Positions 1-54,639 of a DNA stretch of 64,000 nucleotides are shown one piece after another. The DNA is taken from the NCBI RefSeq assembly GCF_058153355.1, contig NZ_CM177019.1. One strand, written 5' to 3'. The stretch's first letter is position 1. Every line of letters begins with the position of its first letter. The notes under the pieces were generated by a model. The model was given only the letters and a program-made list of their open reading frames with translations. It was not told where the DNA came from and made no database searches. The translations under genes and the position numbers were made by a program.

Positions 1-791
1 TCAGGAACTGCACCGCTTCACGTACTTCAACCGCGTTACCGGCACTGGAGGCCAGCACCTGATTCATGTCGGTGAGTAGCGCGGTGGTGCGCACGCCAGC
101 GCCGTTAGCCACGCCAACAATCGCTTCGGCAAGGGCTTCAGAGAGTTCGTAGGTCGGCATAAATGCACCGCTACCGACTTTCACGTCCATCACCAGTGCA
201 TCCAGACCTTCCGCCAGTTTCTTCGCCAGGATCGAGGCAGTGATCAGCGGGATGGAATCCACGGTTGCGGTAATATCGCGGGTCGCATAGAAACGTTTAT
301 CCGCCGGAGCCAGTGAACTGGTCTGGCCAATAATCGCCACGCCGACGTCTTTAATAATTTCGCGGAAACGGTTGTCATCTGGGAAGATGTCGAAGCCAGG
401 GATGGATTCCAGTTTGTCGAGCGTACCACCAGTATGGCCGAGGCCGCGACCGGAGATCATCGGAATATAGCCGCCGCAGGCAGCGACCATTGGCCCCAAC
501 ATCAGCGAAGTCACATCGCCGACGCCGCCGGTCGAGTGTTTATCAACAATCGGGCCATTCAGATGCAGGCTTTTCCAGTCGAGAACGGTTCCTGAATCTC
601 GCATCGCCATCGTCAGCGAGACACGCTCCGGCATTGTCATATCGTGGAAGAAAATGGTCATCGCGAGGGCGGCAATCTGCCCTTCGGAGATAGTGTTGTC
701 GCGAATGCCGTTGATAAAGAAGCGAATTTCTTCATCGCTCAGCGCATGACCATCACGTTTTTTACGAATAATTTCTTGTGCGAGAAACAAG
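1..791 (-). CDS. deoA: thymidine phosphorylase, N-terminal ~263 codons (3' end lies before window start)
   Basis: Minus-strand translation from a TTG at 789-791 reads [24 protein letters not shown]..., and bases 1-200 translate to ...[45 protein letters not shown], both matching DeoA as remembered. Sits directly downstream of deoC as in the deoCABD operon. Confidence 0.9.
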
Positions 792-4382: not shown

Positions 4383-4510
4383 ATGCCGGATGTGGCCTAC
4401 GGTTCGGCACAGACCTGTAGGCATGATAAGACGCGTCAGCGTCGCATCAGGCATTGTGCGCCAACTGCCGGATGCGGCGTGAACGCCTTATCCGGCCTAC
4501 GAAGGGCAGA
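4383..4510. repeat. BIME: two REP palindromic units in the yjjW/yjjV convergent intergenic region
   Basis: Contains GCCGGATGCGGCGTGAACGCCTTATCCGGCCTAC (4467..4500) and a GATAAGACGCGTCAGCGTCGCATCAGGC unit, both canonical E. coli REP sequences. Confidence 0.85.
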
Positions 4511-36046: not shown

Positions 36047-36874
36047 TCAATGAACGGTATCGAGCAGCTTTAACAGCTCAGGGAATCGGGATTCGAAGAA
36101 ATGCGGCTGCGTCTCGCGCGGATTTGCGGGACTGGTGATGTTCTTGCCGAACATGCAGCCTTTCGCTGTCAGCGACCAGAATTTTTTGATGTTGTTAATC
36201 GCGGTACGGCTGTATCGTTCGCGTTGTTCGACGATCCCCAGCTTCGCCATCTGGTGATATGCCTGATTAGCCGTCAGGCGGATACCATACTGTTTCAGCA
36301 GTGCACTCAGCGACAGCGTAGGGCGGCTTGAACCATCTGGCGCATCAGCAGGGGCATCAATGGCATAGATCGGCATAAGTTCAGGAAGACCAGCTACCTT
36401 TGATAATTTCTGGTATGCACCAAGTTTCGAGGAGTTTGACAGATTTAGAGTCTTTGCTGCTGATTCAAGCAGAATGACCCCGGATTTGATTTTGTCGGAT
36501 ATGGTTTCTTCTGGTGATGAATTATGAAGCGCATCAAAAGTACGTATCACTTTTAAGCTGAATGCCGGGCTGATCCACATTGCATATGCATAGACCAGCT
36601 CTTTACAGACATACGTCCCACCATTGCGCCCCTGAATGGTGATGACAGGAATACTACGGGAATCTCCCGTAGTTTCTTCTTCCAATAATTCCACAAGAGC
36701 CTTCGTTTCAGGACGACGCATAAACTCGTGAACTTCCAGCGAACGGGAGGAGCGATTCTCACCAGCAGCAAGAAGAGCAGCTTTCTGAAGGTCGTTAAGA
36801 CAGTAGTTAGATTCGAAGTACTGGCGCACAGAAACGCCATCAATTACAAGCAACTGATTCATTGGTTTCTCCAC
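36047..36874 (-). CDS. KilA-N domain protein (putative antirepressor)
   Basis: 275 aa; N-terminal region with ELVYAYAMWISPAFSLKVIRTF resembles KilA-N/Bro-N; preceded by a consensus SOS box. Confidence 0.6.
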   Translation of the reverse strand: MEKPMNQLLVIDGVSVRQYFESNYCLNDLQKAALLAAGENRSSRSLEVHEFMRRPETKALVELLEEETTGDSRSIPVITIQGRNGGTYVCKELVYAYAMWISPAFSLKVIRTFDALHNSSPEETISDKIKSGVILLESAAKTLNLSNSSKLGAYQKLSKVAGLPELMPIYAIDAPADAPDGSSRPTLSLSALLKQYGIRLTANQAYHQMAKLGIVEQRERYSRTAINNIKKFWSLTAKGCMFGKNITSPANPRETQPHFFESRFPELLKLLDTVH

Positions 36875-36959
36875 AAATTTTTATCCACGAGCGGGACTGC
36901 ACTCCCTTTTCGTTGATGCAGGATGCACTTACTGCGATTTTTAATAGTTATCAAGGGCA

Positions 36960-39828: not shown

Positions 39829-40409
39829 GCGTTAGTTTCTCCACAGACACAAAACGCCACGACGCCCGGAGCTGCACACTCGCGGGCGTCACTCTTTTCT
39901 GGAGCGCAAAAGATTTTGTAGACCAGTGCTGCATGCTCCTGGAGCTTCGAAATTGACAGATACAACTCATCATTAATTACTGTCTGCTCGTGTGGCTCCA
40001 CTACCCCATCTTCGATTGCCGAACGAATCTGCTTTGAGTAACTCCCGATCTGTTCGATGACTTCCAGCAGACGCTGGTTTATATCGGCGTTCTCTACTTC
40101 CTCAATTTCAGGAAGCGATACAAACACCCCACCAGCAGACTGTGCGACAGCATCCGCAATGTAGTGAGTGCCAGCCGCGCGCTGTAAAATCATTGCCCAT
40201 CCCAGCGGGAAAATCTGATCGCCATCTGCACGAAGGCGGTTGAATAAAGCGTTCTCTGTTACATCCAGCCACTCAGCAGCTTCAGCGTAACCTCCCGGCA
40301 ACGCCGCGATAGTTTTTCTGACAGCTTTCACGTACCACTCAGGCTGTTTTTCTACTTTCCAGTGATGCTTACCCACGGCTATCTCCTTAAAACTGTGGTT
40401 ACTTTCCAT
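39825..40409 (-). CDS. early regulatory protein (YdaT/CII-like position)
   Basis: 194 aa directly downstream of the Cro-like gene; resembles Rac-type YdaT as far as memory allows. Confidence 0.5.
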
Positions 40410-40647
40410 CAGATAAGTCTTTAATCTTTTGAAAAATATCTGGACGTAATTTTTCTTTTGATACGCCAGTGGTCATTTCAATGAATATCGAGAGCTTTGC
40501 AGGGGGACGCTTTTCTCTGTTCAACCAGTTCCAGACATGTTGTTGCTTTACTAAACGACCACTGCTGGCTGTGAGCTTCCGAGCCAATTCTGATTGACCA
40601 CCAGCCAGAGCGATTGCCTCTGATAAGGCTAATTGCTCAGGTGTCAT
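40399..40647 (-). CDS. Cro-like HTH regulator (YdaS-like)
   Basis: 82 aa, divergent from the CI-like repressor across an operator region. Confidence 0.7.
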   Translation of the reverse strand: MTPEQLALSEAIALAGGQSELARKLTASSGRLVKQQHVWNWLNREKRPPAKLSIFIEMTTGVSKEKLRPDIFQKIKDLSDGK

Positions 40648-40784: not shown

Positions 40785-41471
40785 GTGAAAACATTGGCAG
40801 AAAGACTAAAAAGCGAAAGAGAAAAAGCAGGAATGAGTCAGGCGCAACTAGCTGAAAAAATTGGACTTTCACAACAATCCGTAGCGAAAATCGAGAATGG
40901 AGAAACTCAACAGCCTCGGAAAATTAAAGAGATTGCTAAAGTGTTAGGGGTTTCTCAAAAGTGGTTGCAATTGGGCATTGAGGATAACGCGTCTTTCCCA
41001 AACCTTGTTGTAAAGGAGGCTGAAAGTACAACATTAGATCCTGACATTTTTGCAAACATTCCTGTCCTAGATGTCGAATTATCAGCGGGTAATGGATGTT
41101 TGGCTGAAATAGTTGAATCAACTGTAGACTGGTTCCCGCTAAGAAGGATTGATTTAAGGAAAGCTGGTGTATGTGTCTCCAATGCAAAGATCGTAAAAAT
41201 TTGGGGTAATAGTTTACTACCTGTACTTAACAATGGAGATTTTGTTGCTGTTGATGTTTCCCAAACAGTTCCTATTCGTGATGGGGATCTTTATGCTATA
41301 CGTGATGGCGTATTACTTAGAGTTAAAATATTGATCAATTTACCTGACGGTGGTCTGATTCTAAGAAGTTTCAATAAAGATGAGTATCCAGATGAAATAC
41401 TCACCTTCGAAGATAGGCGTTCCAGAATTCACGTTATAGGTAGAGTATTCTGGTCATCGCGCACTTGGTAA
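40785..41471 (+). CDS. CI-like repressor (HTH_XRE N-domain + S24 LexA-type peptidase C-domain)
   Basis: 228 aa; GMSQAQLAEKIGLSQQSVAKIENG HTH; C-terminal domain with Ser (GNSLLP) and Lys (RVKIL) typical of autocleaving repressors; GTG start with SD GAGGGGG. Confidence 0.85.
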   Translation: MKTLAERLKSEREKAGMSQAQLAEKIGLSQQSVAKIENGETQQPRKIKEIAKVLGVSQKWLQLGIEDNASFPNLVVKEAESTTLDPDIFANIPVLDVELSAGNGCLAEIVESTVDWFPLRRIDLRKAGVCVSNAKIVKIWGNSLLPVLNNGDFVAVDVSQTVPIRDGDLYAIRDGVLLRVKILINLPDGGLILRSFNKDEYPDEILTFEDRRSRIHVIGRVFWSSRTW

Positions 41472-41649: not shown

Positions 41650-41700
41650 AACCACATAAAGTTGTTGACAACAACCAAAACAACAACTAGATTACAACTT
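41650..41700. promoter_or_regulatory. OL-like operator region (AAGTTGTTGACAACAACC palindrome and further ACAACTT copies)
   Basis: Same heptamer family as the OR region, located downstream of cI and upstream of the plus-strand early-left genes. Confidence 0.5.
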
Positions 41701-41803
41701 AAAGATGTTGCAGTAACGAACAGGCAGGACGCCCACGAAGTAGCCGCCGGTGGCGTATGAATGACCGGATGATTCGTTAAATACTATGTGTAAGAGAGCG
41801 CAA

Positions 41804-42006
41804 ATGAACCGTTATTTCACATGCTCGTTTTGTGGCGCAAACGAGCTGCAGGCAAAAAAATCATCGCCAAAGGCGGAAAAGATGAAGTTGCTATCTGCTC
41901 TGAGTGCGTAGTCTTGTGTGTTGGGGCATTAATCAATATCAGCACAACTATTCAGTTCACACCAAATGAGAATGCGCCTTTAGATGCGCGGAAATCTGGA
42001 GGTTAA
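41804..42006 (+). pseudogene. ClpX-N-type C4 zinc-ribbon protein, reading frame split at an A7 tract (41854..41860)
   Basis: Frame A: MNRYFTCSFCGANELQAKK...; frame B continues ...IIAKGGKDEVAICSECVVLCVGALI. The joined sequence has CxxC-N18-CxxC; a -1 shift at A_AAA_AAA connects the frames. Confidence 0.5.
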
Positions 42007-42098: not shown

Positions 42099-42272
42099 GG
42101 AATAGTTAGAAATCAAGCAGATATATTGAAAATCAGCTCTGAATTGCTTGGAGTTTTGAAAAGTGAGCTCACCGCACATGGCATCGAGCCCACTGACGAA
42201 AATTTAAGTTGGGTTTTGTCGATTATTCAACAATCACTCAAGCCCAGCCTCAGCAAACTTTTTATCGAGTAG
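42099..42272 (+). CDS. small hypothetical early protein
   Basis: GTG start with strong SD AAGGGAGG; 57 aa; 3' end overlaps a convergent minus-strand ORF. Confidence 0.4.
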   Translation, partial: GIVRNQADILKISSELLGVLKSELTAHGIEPTDENLSWVLSIIQQSLKPSLSKLFIE

Positions 42273-42425
42273 TGCTTCGAACTTATCGTAAAGCTTGCTT
42301 ATGTCGTCTATCGGGTTTTCTGACGTACTGTAATTTTTATCTGATGTCATGGCAGCAGTCTGATATGCAGTGTGAGTCTTAACCGATAGTTGGAATAAAT
42401 AAAGAATTTTTTCTTCTTTGGTCAT
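42234..42425 (-). CDS. small hypothetical acidic protein, convergent and 3'-overlapping
   Basis: 63 aa (MTKEEKILYLFQLSVKTHTAYQ...), SD AAGGAA, low GC. Confidence 0.45.
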   Translation of the reverse strand: MTKEEKILYLFQLSVKTHTAYQTAAMTSDKNYSTSENPIDDISKLYDKFEALLDKKFAEAGLE

Positions 42426-42863
42426 AACTATTTCCTTCTTGGCTATATGAAAACACCAAGATACCACCGAGCCTGAAGTGGTGAAAAGACAGGCACATAA
42501 CAGCTAAGTATTTTCAACCAGAGAGAATCCTTAGCGTTGTGGTGAATGCGGCTCAGCGCACGCGGGTTAAGGTTGAGGTTGACAGTCGACCTTCTGTGGA
42601 TACCCACCCGCCTGGTGTGCAACCTTCGCCAGGCACCGGGAGGCACCCGGCACCACAACTTTATGCTGTGTGTAGTCCTCGCGGTACCAGTTTGTACACT
42701 TGCTTCCGGCTGGTACCGCTCTTTTTACAAAACAGAGAAGGGCATCACCGGACGACGGGCTCATAACCCAATCCATCCGGGCGGCTGCCACCGCAGGTGT
42801 TCTTCTCTGTTTTGTGGAGAAACCAACCGACCTTGCAGGGTCGATATGATGAGGAGCAGCAAA

Positions 42864-43226
42864 ATGGCTAGCGAACGCAGTACTGATGTGCAGGCATTTA
42901 TCGGGGAGCTGGACGGCGGCGTATTTGAAACCAAAATCGGCGCAGTTCTCAGTGAAGTCGCTTCCGGTGTGATGAACACGAAAACCAAAGGTAAGGTCTC
43001 GCTCAACCTGGAAATCGAACCATTTGATGAGAACCGTGTGAAAATCAAACACAAACTCTCATATGTTCGCCCGACTAACCGCGGGAAAATTTCCGAAGAA
43101 GACACCACCGAAACACCGATGTATGTCAATCGCGGTGGTCGCCTGACTATTCTGCAGGAAGACCAGGGACAATTACTGACTCTTGCCGGTGAACCTGACG
43201 GAAAACTACGCGCAGCAGGTCATTAA
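42864..43226 (+). CDS. hypothetical early protein (YfdP-like size and position)
   Basis: ATG at 42864 with SD GAGGAG; 120 aa MASERSTDVQAFIGELDGG...; the upstream part of the track ORF is judged non-coding. Confidence 0.6.
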   Translation: MASERSTDVQAFIGELDGGVFETKIGAVLSEVASGVMNTKTKGKVSLNLEIEPFDENRVKIKHKLSYVRPTNRGKISEEDTTETPMYVNRGGRLTILQEDQGQLLTLAGEPDGKLRAAGH

Positions 43227-51727: not shown

Positions 51728-54090
51728 CCCTGTCGGGTAGCAGCGATTCATTACTGTCTCGCCGCCCCCTAAGAACGGTACGTGCGAGTTTCCCCGCATA
51801 CCGCTCAAGCCTTTATAAGCCTCCACCTTGTGGGAGACCAGCGTCATTACTATGTAGTTGTCGATGGCAGTTGGGATGGAGTAGGACTAAATTGCTCACA
51901 TCATCGCTACCGCCAAGAGATTTCTTGAGCAAATGATGAACATTCCATCCTGTATCGCGATTAATCGGTTGCTCACATAAAGGGCAGCGCGATCCTTGCC
52001 TTTTCCATATAGCGAGAATCCTTTTCTGCCCCTGTTGGGATTTCTTCCATGAGTAGTCCAGCCTTCTTTCGAAGTATGTTTCCCACTCGGGATCATATGG
52101 ATTTGCCGTTCCCTTTATTTTTATATAGCGATTAATATGGATGTCGCTGGCCCGGGACAGAACATATTTCCTACCCTCCGGATCGACTCCATAAAATCGA
52201 CCATGACACATTTTTATTGTCGTGTGGTACTTTCGGAAGATCCATCTCCGGCCTTTGCCGGGATGTCTCCTTCTGCACCACTGCCAGATTTTGCGCCAGA
52301 TTTGGTTGTCGACATAGTTAAATGTCTCTGCCGATGCTACATGTTGGTGATAGTTTGCCCACCCGGTGATGATTGGATTAAGCAGATTTATTAGCACCCA
52401 TGCAGGAACCGTTCGGTTACCTTCAATAGTCTCTCTGATCTTGCTAAGAAATTGTTTAACGTTTTTCTTGGCTGGTCTGATTATGAGTTTTCTACCGAAG
52501 CGTCGGACGTGCTGCCCAAGGAAATCAAATCCGTCAGTAATGTGAGTGATGACCGTTTTCTCTTCGGATAACGTCAGCCCTCTTTCTGCAAGAAATGATT
52601 TCACCAACGGAAGAACATTCTCCTCCAGAAGTTCTTTCGACTTTCCGGAAATGATGAAATCATCAGCATACCGGACGAAGTGAACCTGATGTTTCCTGAA
52701 TGTTTTTGAGCGTTTCGGACCAAAGCGATTTTGCAGCAGTCTTTCCAGTCCATCCAGGGCCATGTTTGCCAGAACTGGAGATATGATTCCTCCCTGGGGT
52801 GTACCCGAGAGAGTTTTGCTGAATATGCTTTTTTCGATGATCCCGGCTTTCAACCAATTACGGAGTATTTGCTTGTCCATAGGAATATTTTCAAGCAGCC
52901 ACTCGTGGCTAATGTGTTCAAAGCATCCTTTAATATCGCCTTCCAGAACCCATTTCGAGGCGTTCCGGGAACTATACATATTACATACCTGTTGAATGGC
53001 GTCAGCCGTACATCGCGCTGGTCTGAAACCATAACTGTTGTGATCTGCATTAGTTTCCGATACAGGCTCCAATCCCAGCAGATGCAGGGCCTGCATTGCC
53101 CTGTCAAGCATGACGGGGATTCCTAATGGTCTTTTCTTGCCATTAGATTTGGGTATAAAAACTCTTTTTAGCGGTAGGGGCTTGTACCCTTTTCGCCTGA
53201 GTTTGAATATCGCTTCCCATTTTGATTCTGGAGTACTCCAGATTTGACCATCAACTCCGGGGGTTTTACGCCCGCTATTTTCCGTAACTCGTTTCACCGC
53301 CAGTGCTCTGGCGCTGAATGAGCGAACCAGCAATCGTTGCAATCTACCGACTGTACGCCATTGCTGGTTACATGCCGCCTTTGCGATTCTTGTCTGTATG
53401 GTTTTAACGTGTTGATGGCATTTCTTCCAGTTAATGGAATGCCAACCTTTTCCGTTGATGACCGCAGTTACATTGTTAGATGTAATTTTCATACATGTCA
53501 TCCAAAGAAACCTTCGCAGATGTTTCGCAATTAAAGACCAGATGGAAGTCAGCACGGTTTCCCGTTAAGGCAAATATTGAACCTCTATCCGCACGATTAC
53601 AGTCCGGCTTTCGCTTTTTCCATCCTCCTTTACCCGCATTCTCATCAGTTTGCCTTACGGTGCCCCTGCCACTAGGGCGAGAATTCGGGCTTACCAAGTT
53701 CCGACCAACATACAAAGAACGGGTTAGGTTCTGTCTATCCGCCGGGGGAGTTATTGTCCATGTATTCCCACTACGAACAGGAATAGCCTTACCCCTTACC
53801 TTTTGGTGCAAGCCTATCAGCATCTTTGGCTCGTTCTCTGTTACGACGTTTAACGACAGTTCACTATGTTAACCATACCGCCCAGCCTAGCGCTCTCGCC
53901 GCATGATGCTTGTAGCGATCAGGTTTTCTCACGATTAACTGAAGCAATATTTGCTAAGCTACATTGTCCCAAGGGCTTCAGACAGAGCCGTTACCAGCTT
54001 TGCCTGCCTCAGTAGGCTACAACTAATGGAATAGTTGGTTTTATATAAATAATTTATCAAAACAATATGTTGGACGACTTCTTGTCGCAC
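51728..54090 (-). mobile_element. group II intron (~2.36 kb), boundaries approximate at the 3' end
   Basis: 5' end GTGCGACAAG (reverse complement of 54081..54090); RT/maturase/HNH ORF; canonical domain V GAGCGGTATGCGGGGAAACTCGCACGTACCGTTC (reverse complement of 51773..51806) 7 nt after the ORF stop. Confidence 0.75.
51813..53492 (-). CDS. group II intron reverse transcriptase/maturase with C-terminal HNH endonuclease domain
   Basis: ORF 51813..53555; RT motifs including YADDFII; maturase (X) region; C-terminal CPLCEQ...HH...NCHRQLH; likely start at MKITSNNVT. Confidence 0.85.
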   Translation of the reverse strand: MKITSNNVTAVINGKGWHSINWKKCHQHVKTIQTRIAKAACNQQWRTVGRLQRLLVRSFSARALAVKRVTENSGRKTPGVDGQIWSTPESKWEAIFKLRRKGYKPLPLKRVFIPKSNGKKRPLGIPVMLDRAMQALHLLGLEPVSETNADHNSYGFRPARCTADAIQQVCNMYSSRNASKWVLEGDIKGCFEHISHEWLLENIPMDKQILRNWLKAGIIEKSIFSKTLSGTPQGGIISPVLANMALDGLERLLQNRFGPKRSKTFRKHQVHFVRYADDFIISGKSKELLEENVLPLVKSFLAERGLTLSEEKTVITHITDGFDFLGQHVRRFGRKLIIRPAKKNVKQFLSKIRETIEGNRTVPAWVLINLLNPIITGWANYHQHVASAETFNYVDNQIWRKIWQWCRRRHPGKGRRWIFRKYHTTIKMCHGRFYGVDPEGRKYVLSRASDIHINRYIKIKGTANPYDPEWETYFERRLDYSWKKSQQGQKRILAIWKRQGSRCPLCEQPINRDTGWNVHHLLKKSLGGSDDVSNLVLLHPNCHRQLHSNDAGLPQGGGL

Positions 54091-54093
54091 TCG

Positions 54094-54181
54094 TAGGCCA
54101 GATAAGACGCGCCCGCGTCGCATCTGGCATCTGCACCCAAATACCGTGTCGGATGCGGCATGAACGCCTTATCCGACCTAT
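54094..54181. repeat. BIME: two REP units abutting the intron 5' end
   Basis: TAGGCCAGATAAGACGCGCCCGCGTCGCATCTGGCA and GTCGGATGCGGCATGAACGCCTTATCCGACCTAT. Confidence 0.7.
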
Positions 54182-54317: not shown

Positions 54318-54404
54318 GCGAAGGTGGCGGAATTGGTAGACGCGCTAGCTTCAGGTGTTAGTGTCCTTACGGACGTGGGGGTTCAAGTCCCCCCCCTCGC
54401 ACCA
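54318..54404 (+). tRNA. leuQ: tRNA-Leu (anticodon CAG), copy 1
   Basis: 87-nt sequence GCGAAGGTGGCGGAATTGGTAGACGCGCTAGCTTCAGGTGTTAGTGTCCTTACGGACGTGGGGGTTCAAGTCCCCCCCCTCGCACCA, matching E. coli tRNA-Leu1 with encoded CCA. Confidence 0.95.
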
Positions 54405-54432
54405 AAAACCACGTTGATATTGCTCGCACTGG

Positions 54433-54519
54433 GCGAAGGTGGCGGAATTGGTAGACGCGCTAGCTTCAGGTGTTAGTGTTCTTACGGACGTGGGGGTTCA
54501 AGTCCCCCCCCTCGCACCA
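54433..54519 (+). tRNA. leuP: tRNA-Leu (CAG), copy 2 (one C to T difference in the variable arm)
   Basis: Same 87-nt sequence except GTGTTCTTACGG instead of GTGTCCTTACGG. Confidence 0.95.
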
Positions 54520-54552
54520 AACGAGGCGATATCAAAAAAGTAAGATGACTGT

Positions 54553-54639
54553 GCGAAGGTGGCGGAATTGGTAGACGCGCTAGCTTCAGGTGTTAGTGTC
54601 CTTACGGACGTGGGGGTTCAAGTCCCCCCCCTCGCACCA
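54553..54639 (+). tRNA. leuV: tRNA-Leu (CAG), copy 3
   Basis: Identical to copy 1. Confidence 0.95.

Follow-up and report, generated by a model that had tools for sequence, protein, structure and literature searches.

The GC-rich stretch upstream of yfdP in a lambdoid prophage is very probably a three-module RNA leader containing an STnc100-family member

What lies at 42470-42860 in the 64,000-nt stretch of DNA analysed here (the window), directly upstream of yfdP, the first conserved gene of the early-left operon yfdP-yfdQ-yfdR...xis-int of a lambdoid prophage? The first-pass annotation had described this region as GC-rich, highly structured and non-coding, and had offered a small RNA (sRNA), an antitermination element, a processing site or a protein-binding recombination site as its function. 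We found that it is very probably a three-module non-coding RNA leader that contains a member of the STnc100 family, and we put the chance at about even that this leader is an attenuator of transcription from the early-left promoter pL which releases an STnc100-type sRNA. The modules, their folds and strand, their position relative to promoter and gene, and the family membership of the first are observations. The stretch had been taken as one element; it is structured as claimed, but it is not a single unit, and its three modules include a terminator and a tRNA-like second hairpin.

The stretch stood out in both base composition and folding. Its GC content was 0.555-0.595 across 42500-42800 versus 0.38-0.44 in the flanks. 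Folded as RNA, 42500-42730 gave -93.4 kcal/mol (z -3.7) and 42720-42870 gave -60.5 kcal/mol (z -5.1), equalled in each case by none of 200 dinucleotide shuffles, and comparison of the two strands showed -162.7 kcal/mol for the plus strand and -146.8 kcal/mol for the minus strand, the plus strand being the better folded throughout. The inverted repeats listed by the first-pass annotation were present to within one base: ACAAAACAGAGAAG (42727-42740) is complementary to CTTCTCTGTTTTGT, which lies at 42802-42815 rather than 42803..42816, with arms extendable to 25 nt at 80% complementarity, and GCGGTACCAG (42681-42690) is 100% complementary to CTGGTACCGC (42710-42719). A CCGGG-AGGCA-CCCGG hairpin was present at 42636-42650, and a pair that had not been listed, GTTGTGGTG (42536-42544) with CACCACAAC (42651-42659), forms 9 bp enclosing the first half. 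Together with the Rfam match, the covariation and the lack of codon periodicity given below, the GC content and the folding z-scores confirmed that 42470-42860 is GC-rich, highly structured and non-coding.

An Rfam scan, one of the checks proposed by the first-pass annotation, matched the STnc100 family (RF02076) in the first half of the stretch and no family in the second. The match covers 42506-42728 on the plus strand and model positions 1-206, and it scores 49.8 bits where the gathering score is 47 (E 7.6e-9). The features of this first module are as follows.

42503..42535, plus strand: hairpin P0 (GCTAAGTATTTTC / GAGAATCCTTAGC), predicted only, upstream of the core
42536..42659, plus strand: STnc100/PasD-family core, 124 nt (Rfam RF02076, covariation)
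42536-42544 / 42651-42659, plus strand: helix P1, which closes the core
42545-42547, plus strand: AAU, part of the core
42547-42552 / 42558-42564, plus strand: helix P2 with a bulged A at 42560, covarying
42569-42575 / 42620-42626, plus strand: pseudoknot AAGGUUG/CAACCUU, its second strand in the P4 loop, covarying
42610-42617 / 42627-42634, plus strand: helix P4, covarying in 36 clusters
42636-42650, plus strand: hairpin P5, CCGGG-AGGCA-CCCGG, with a compensatory change in Kp4866-6

Viral contigs were scanned for the invariant CCGGGAGGCACCCGGCACCA, which yielded 120 loci in 36 core clusters at 93% identity. Changes on both sides were seen in the outer P1 pairs and in five pairs of P2, and RNAalifold showed 5 of 18 pairs to be double-changed among the core clusters. 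The arms of P4 had many different complementary sequences across the 36 clusters. The strand after P2 paired over 5-10 bp with the loop of P4, in every case from core positions 29-33 and in ~18 sequence versions, such as AAGGUUG/CAACCUU in the window and CCAGUC/GACUGG, AUCAGC/GCUGGU, CAGUUA/UAACUG, GAGCUG/CAGCUC and AGACUGACA/UGUCAGUCU elsewhere, and this pairing was individually significant against loop shuffles (p<=0.05) in 23 of the 36 clusters. P4 and the pseudoknot were tested per sequence; the register of the MAFFT alignment is shifted between subtypes by differences in loop length. P5 is invariant in this sample owing to the retrieval motif, and in Kp4866-6 (leader L127) it reads GGUGG-AGGCA-CCACC, with the stem changed compensatorily and the loop the same. 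At the position of P0, relatives form a hairpin or else keep the conserved block CAGUGCUCUCUUC. The pairing of the repeats, whose conservation had been named as a test by the first-pass annotation, is kept in homologues through compensatory changes.

These observations identify 42536-42659 as a member of the STnc100/PasD family and a new variant of it, which has no promoter, is carried within a leader and represents one of the alleles of a swappable cassette. It holds the conserved GGUGAAU and AGGCA motifs together with P1, P2, P4 and P5 (CCGGG-AGGCA-CCCGG), is followed by an intrinsic terminator, lies in a lambdoid prophage and scores above the Rfam gathering score, all in common with STnc100 and PasD. 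Unlike them, the window member has no promoter of its own, is located in the pL leader before yfdP and not in the late region by lysis, esterase or stx genes, has a flipped P2 sequence (GC-GGC instead of CC-CCC), and forms a pseudoknot that is missing from the structure line of the matched Rfam model. The sRNA proposed by the first-pass annotation fits the first half, an STnc100/PasD-family core with a terminator at its end.

The same bases have also been annotated as protein. In E. coli HH107, the sole RefSeq record inspected, RefSeq/PGAP calls a frameshifted pseudogene ('hypothetical protein, frameshifted') at L249 2270-2580, which corresponds to 42539-42849 of the window; the mEp460 record has two minus-strand hypothetical proteins over the leader, other phage records likewise list hypothetical proteins, and open frames of 75 and 49 amino acids exist in the stretch. 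However, no reading frame was conserved across SfV, ST64B, mEp460 and Kp4866-6, most frames contain stops, indels of 1-2 nt separate the stretch from ST64B, and variable sites were distributed 21/20/14 over the codon positions. Unrelated cassettes replace the core between the P1 arms in phages with identical YfdP, and the substitutions in the RNA helices are compensatory. The missing shared frame, the indels and the cassette swaps largely refute a protein-coding gene, an explanation that we find scarcely credible; the PGAP call is best read as an artefact and the proteins of the phage records are probably mis-annotations. The Rfam match, the covariation of every testable helix, the G-U pairs and U-tract meaningful on the plus strand only and the lack of codon periodicity all argue for structured RNA rather than protein. 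The open reading frame (ORF) 42546..43226 proved to be read-through, as had been suspected: it runs into yfdP, whose true start is ATG 42864 after GAGGAG. The convergent small ORFs named as the left border were an error, because the start of the minus-strand ORF 42234-42425 faces the stretch and this ORF is thus divergent from yfdP.

PasD1 and PasD2, relatives of STnc100, were found to be Hfq-dependent sRNAs by Northern blot and RIL-seq (PMC8550237). The relation between STnc100 and PasD was proposed recently, and both were placed between Q, stx and the lysis genes (bioRxiv 10.64898/2026.05.13.724894). In our sample, about 20 of the 29 late-region clusters have their own promoter, TTGAC(T/C/G)-18-TA(A/C)(A/T)TT, with the -10 element ending 8 nt before P1. 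Most late-region relatives also have a terminator 20-35 nt after the core, and on their strand holin/lysozyme or nanS-p esterase genes lie downstream of them. No promoter of this late-region type was present in the window type or its 5 nearest cluster types, in which the terminator is present, and window-type cores were always located in the pL leader. Another sRNA, the co293-like svsR, was assigned in the SfV-like prophage NC-SV to the 3' end of cI (PMC12803456), a position equivalent to about 41400-41471 of the window. With this position it is a different element, and it was rejected as the identity of the stretch.

The slot that holds the core was compared in 80 yfdP-anchored loci (L250-L329) with 100% identical YfdP. 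At the equivalent of 42536-42659, ~28 loci carry an STnc100-like 124-nt cassette, ~31 a 115-nt cassette and ~19 a 135-nt cassette (the mEp460 type), while 2 have none. The same P1 arms (GUUGUGG.../...CCACAAC) enclose differing inserts in leaders retrieved via the second module or YfdP, and other leaders hold further cassette variants, including ~58-nt forms. All three main cassettes retain P1, a GGU(G)AAU-like start and the P2 hairpin, and the 115-nt cassette, as judged by eye, also retains the pseudoknot as GUAUGG/CCAUAC; the mEp460-type cassette was not detected by Rfam at E<=0.1. Because the terminator and everything after it stay almost constant while the cassettes differ, the cassette is the exchangeable part of a constant leader. 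Cassette type had no obvious link to immunity type, the operators of ST64B and mEp460 being similar and their cassettes different. One or two T-loop-type hairpins (canonical sequences CUGGUUCGAUUCCAG, GUCCGUUCGAUUCGGAC) were also seen upstream of the core in leaders L127 (2195-2275), L136, L150, L166 and L193, at a place where the window leader has ORFs; they add further tRNA-like elements to this RNA.

The second module joins the core to a transcription stop.

42660..42680, plus strand: linker UUUAUGCUGUGUGUAGUCCUC, 21 nt between the core and the terminator
42681..42726, plus strand: intrinsic terminator with a 10-12 bp GC-rich stem (42681-42690/42710-42719) followed by UCUUUUU (42720-42726), hairpin -19.1 kcal/mol

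The linker is conserved as GCUGUGUGWAGUCYUGGCGG in many leaders with different cores. The terminator hairpin reads GCGGUACCAG...CUGGUACCGC; in ST64B, Kp4866-6 and ~20 other leader types its sequence differs, and a hairpin followed by C/A-UUUUU(U)-AC is retained. A U-tract after the hairpin was found on the plus strand only. By eye, no convincing and conserved alternative pairing of the riboswitch type was seen between the core or linker and the 5' arm of the terminator. Two other candidates were rejected here. The sequence GGCGGTAC at the foot of the terminator in relatives looks by eye like an ops/RfaH site, and the window reads CGCGGTACC, in which key positions differ. As an internal promoter past the terminator, only TATGAT at 42845-42850 was available, with no -35 element, and its use would leave no ribosome-binding site.

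The third module is a three-way junction downstream of the terminator, with features taken from the minimum free energy (MFE) fold.

42727..42815, plus strand: tRNA-like three-way junction (MFE fold, covariation)
42727-42746 / 42796-42815, plus strand: closing stem of 20 bp, extendable to 42722-42820 and 25 bp by pairing the U-tract with GUGGAGA
42748-42780, plus strand: hairpin A, CCGGA[...]UCCGG (MFE)
42781-42794, plus strand: hairpin B, GCGG[CUGCCA]CCGC (MFE)
42756..42769, plus strand: initiator-type anticodon arm CGGGCUCAUAACCC, three G-C pairs around a CUCAUAA loop at the tip of hairpin A

In 17 cluster representatives, 96.4% of the cells were paired, compared with 37-51% when the partners were slid, and 7 pairs were compensatory. 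The covariation score was 0.190 versus 0.105 in shuffles (0/500), and 30 cells were double-changed versus 10.4. About 28 cells hold G-U pairs that would be A-C mismatches on the other strand, so the plus-strand RNA is what is selected. Except for chance hairpin matches, the junction matches no family in Rfam 15 at E<=10, and no description of it was found in a limited literature search.

All 14 nt of CGGGCUCAUAACCC recur unchanged in the anticodon arm of the E. coli initiator tRNA-fMet (metZ, MG1655). In Klebsiella phage GZ7, blastn showed a homologous 21-nt loop and hairpins directly after tRNA-Asn and tRNA-Arg, downstream of Q, and in GZ7 and 7 further cluster types from viral contigs the unit immediately follows the final tRNA of an array. 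In these array-end units a 6-bp stem (GGCCUG/CAGGCC) resembles an acceptor stem and hairpin B covaries, and 7 of the 8 types carry a 3' RCCA. ARAGORN found no tRNA in 42300-43000, and the Rfam tRNA model had no match at E<=10 in either the window or the GZ7 copy. Because of these negative results, and because the junction has no D arm and no canonical T loop, we call the module tRNA-like and not a tRNA; a tRNA gene in the second hairpin was rejected on the ARAGORN and Rfam results, and the labels 'tRNA-Arg/Asn' given in the blast table come from adjacent genes, which share only ~2 nt with the match.

The likeness to initiator tRNA raises a further reading, which we offer tentatively and consider rather improbable. 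By this reading 42727-42815 would represent a hitherto undescribed class of tRNA-like RNAs in phages, built to resemble the anticodon limb of initiator tRNA. Such RNAs would serve as decoy or ligand for a factor recognising that tRNA, be it a nuclease of the VapC type that cuts anticodons, MetRS, or the 30S P site together with IF3, so as to protect or tune phage gene expression. The class would come in two forms, one CCA-ended and free-standing at the array ends of Klebsiella-type phages, the other embedded in the early-left leaders of SfV/ST64B/mEp460-type prophages. Taken with the swappable cassettes, and with the T-arm-like hairpins of related leaders, the pL leader as a whole would then be a modular RNA that mimics tRNA, and not a simple untranslated region (UTR). 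Winther and Gerdes reportedly found in 2011 that VapC of Shigella and Salmonella cleaves initiator tRNA. The 14-nt identity with its three G-C pairs and the free-standing homologues with acceptor-like stem and RCCA speak for mimicry, and the arm lengths would fit the two limbs of an L-shaped tRNA. However, the junction is not recognised as tRNA, and the window copy, which has a 20-25 bp stem and lacks a CCA end, lies inside an mRNA leader. ST64B-type copies read CUCAUUA in place of CUCAUAA, and the GGG/CCC pairs of the arm never vary, so that no covariation test is possible for them. The pattern used to retrieve most junction copies includes the loop, whose conservation is overstated as a result, and although the segment 42750-42766 was invariant in the yfdP-anchored sample while the stems and other loops varied, those loci are close relatives.

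The three modules lie downstream of an immunity region with the following features, and yfdP follows them.

40399-40647, minus strand: Cro-like gene, bordering the operator region opposite cI
40785-41471, plus strand: cI-like repressor gene, identified by PHROG comparison
41665..41693, plus strand: pL-like sigma-70 promoter, TTGACA-17-TAGATT, 10/12 match in a promoter scan
42851..43226, plus strand: yfdP with Shine-Dalgarno GAGGAG at 42851-42856 and ATG at 42864, 120 amino acids (phrog_204; SfV and RefSeq annotation)

A CII-like gene was also identified by this comparison. AAAGTTGT/ACAACTT operator repeats flank the pL-like promoter, the same as in the cro-cI intergenic region, and the promoter at 41665-41693 is likely the cI-controlled analogue of pL and the source of transcripts that cross the stretch. 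The leader lies ~800 nt downstream of it, directly upstream of yfdP, and the order cI, pL, leader, yfdP-yfdQ-yfdR...xis-int is syntenic in SfV, ST64B, mEp460 and Stx2a_1447. Two small same-strand phage ORFs and one opposed small ORF, all in PHROG families of unknown function, lie between pL and the stretch. A small ORF at 41804-42006 (plus strand), with a CxxC...CxxC pattern like the ClpX zinc finger, is broken by a frameshift where seven A stand in a row (41854-41860). Adding one A there gives a 67-residue product that matches phrog_5259 end to end (E 2e-31), and the frameshift may reflect a pseudogene, a sequencing error or a slippage site.

In the attenuator reading, the mechanism that we find likeliest, with what we infer of termination efficiency, of sRNA release and trans-action and of the role of the tRNA-like junction, transcription would run on the plus strand from the cI-controlled pL-like promoter at 41665-41693 through the leader. 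The core would be closed by P1 and locked by the pseudoknot between the strand after P2 and the P4 loop. Polymerase that stopped at 42720-42726 would leave a stable RNA of ~190-220 nt composed of core, terminator hairpin and U-tail, with the architecture of the free-standing STnc100/PasD sRNAs, which are Hfq-binding and trans-acting, and this RNA would probably act in trans as well. Read-through would instead give the yfdP...xis-int mRNA with a tRNA-like 5' UTR, in which the U-tract of the terminator would be drawn into the 20-25 bp closing stem of the junction. The junction might then be a stabiliser of the 5' UTR or a processing site, its long stem being a plausible RNase III substrate; the processing site suggested by the first-pass annotation is thereby a possible role for the 20-25 bp stem of the second half. 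The lambda N-leader RNase III site is likewise a long, near-perfect hairpin between an early-left regulatory RNA element and the ribosome-binding site of the first gene. In contrast to that simple stem, the junction is three-way with a conserved 21-nt loop, and RNase III cleavage is only putative here.

The first-pass annotation had also suggested an antitermination element. No gene between cI and yfdP was annotated as, or resembled, an N-type antiterminator in the window, SfV, ST64B, mEp460 or Stx2a_1447, and the core might replace N as a cis-acting processive antiterminator RNA of the put or EAR kind, its nascent fold binding RNA polymerase and carrying it through the adjacent and later terminators. 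The core lies downstream of pL and directly before a conserved terminator in an operon that needs read-through to xis-int, its fold is compact and pseudoknotted with invariant unpaired nucleotides, and the window-type core has no promoter of its own, all of which would suit such a role. Phage HK022 has paired putL and putR antiterminator RNAs (PMC9378689), and these too are folded RNAs after an early promoter and before terminators in a lambdoid phage without an evident N-type antiterminator. However, put consists of two stem-loops with a triplex, whereas the window has a pseudoknotted multi-helix core ~800 nt from the promoter and in a single copy: a motif scan of both strands of the window together with Rfam found no second core as a putR analogue, and none lies on the pR side. 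Homology to HK022 put was rejected, as comparison of the immunity region by blastn gave chance matches only and Rfam gave no common family. Moreover, most late-region relatives have constitutive-looking promoters just before holin/lysozyme genes, where an autonomous antiterminator would express the lysis genes and kill the lysogens, and they were observed as discrete terminated sRNAs; some leaders have no core at all. With no likeness to put, a single copy and promoter-bearing relatives directly before lysis genes, we judge an antiterminator function of the core to be unlikely.

The best lead for read-through lies elsewhere, just past the pL-like promoter. A 62-nt block, CGAACAGGCAGGACGCCCACGAAGTAGCCGCCGGTGGCRTAYGAATRACCGGATGATTCG, at 41717-41778 (plus strand) lies ~10-20 nt past the -10 element of the pL-like promoter. 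Its sequence was invariant in 32 loci, behind at least 8 operator/promoter types as sorted by eye. The block was not notably structured, its fold being no better than shuffles (z +0.86). Judged by its sequence and position, it is a candidate promoter-proximal recruitment or antitermination site.

Several observations weigh against the attenuator leader with an STnc100-type sRNA. The Rfam score of the window is borderline for an STnc100/PasD member, barely above threshold, and its nearest relatives SfV (39.5 bits) and ST64B (35.1 bits) fall below it. Since pL should be repressed in a lysogen, the sRNA would, without an internal promoter, appear only after induction, unlike PasD; a weak candidate promoter, AAGACA-17-TATTTT, was seen by eye at 42486-42514 and is not conserved in ST64B. 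The presence of any of three cassettes, or none, before identical YfdP indicates that the core is dispensable for the leader as such. Its elaborate, conserved pseudoknotted fold with invariant unpaired GGUGAAU and AGGCA exceeds the usual needs of a base-pairing sRNA and hints at a protein or enzyme partner. Finally, if the terminator is efficient, something must permit read-through to xis-int, and the sole candidate seen is the 62-nt block at 41717-41778.

Between the junction and yfdP one more conserved segment was found.

42816..42843, plus strand: conserved GGAGAAAC(C/U)AAC block followed by a small hairpin, CGACC-UUGCAG-GGUCG, at 42828-42843 (fold and homologue comparison)

By eye, the stem of this hairpin varies among leader types and its loop retains GCAG/GCAA (U/G-K-GCAG). 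The layout of block and hairpin is reminiscent of boxA plus boxB. The 16-nt TTTGTGGAGAAACCAA is repeated exactly at 42811-42826 (plus strand) and 36862-36877 (minus strand), against a chance expectation that we estimate at ~0.01 matches in 8.3 kb. At 36862-36877 it forms the Shine-Dalgarno sequence and spacer directly before the ATG of a pR-operon gene, where the leader reads ACC. The repeat may be a relic of a mosaic joint or a shared signal.

This repeat, common to the leader and the start of a pR-operon gene, also bears on whether the inverted repeats act as DNA, either bound by a recombinase or regulator or serving as a hotspot of recombination where a mosaic joint lies. Mosaic joints do occur at the module edges, 42681-42870 alone being common to many Stx2, mEp460 and cdtI phages, and different cassettes are exchanged within P1 arms that stay constant. 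Any lambdoid region is, however, expected to be mosaic at module borders. What is retained is pairing, through G-U wobbles and compensatory changes, and not sequence identity; the fold is strand-asymmetric, the U-tract follows the hairpin on one strand only, and an RNA family model matches. Because selection works on RNA pairing, the protein-binding recombination site of the first-pass annotation found no support, and we regard a DNA-level site as very unlikely.

The leader also resembles known regulatory RNAs of other phages. The C4 RNA of P1/P7 and the CI RNA of P4 are leader-embedded regulatory RNAs processed by RNase P, and like the window leader they are structured, promoter-less within a phage operon leader and present as allelic variants among related phages. 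Unlike them, the window leader has no Rfam C4 match, and no cassette-specific complementary target was seen downstream, where the leader is constant while the cassettes differ. C4 antisense RNA and IsrK are present in SfV, ST64B, mEp460 and Stx2a_1447, in the antirepressor region of the pR operon (~190-600, minus strand), and Rfam gave no match to either at the gathering threshold in the window. Elsewhere in the window, Rfam showed group II intron domains at 51732-54038 (minus strand), three identically scoring 84-nt tandem tRNA matches at 54318-54636 (plus strand), and two naRNA4 (REP-type) elements at 4420-4497 and 54096-54178 (both minus strand).

Among 5426 complete E. coli genomes, 2780 had matching sequence, with a coverage of at least 80% in 1822, and it was also present in phages of Shigella, Salmonella, Klebsiella, Cronobacter and Citrobacter. 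The STnc100/PasD RNAs appear here as part of a wider class of P1-closed pseudoknotted cassettes, which comprises stand-alone sRNA genes of the late region and promoter-less inserts of early leaders, with three interchangeable alleles preceding an identical yfdP. A pseudoknotted fold conserved in this way argues for a role of these RNAs beyond base-pairing with targets. Since no N gene was found between cI and yfdP, yet a terminator stands between pL and xis-int, the leader and the 62-nt block offer a concrete place to seek an antitermination mechanism in these phages, and the initiator-tRNA-like junction may prove to be a phage tRNA mimic of a new kind.

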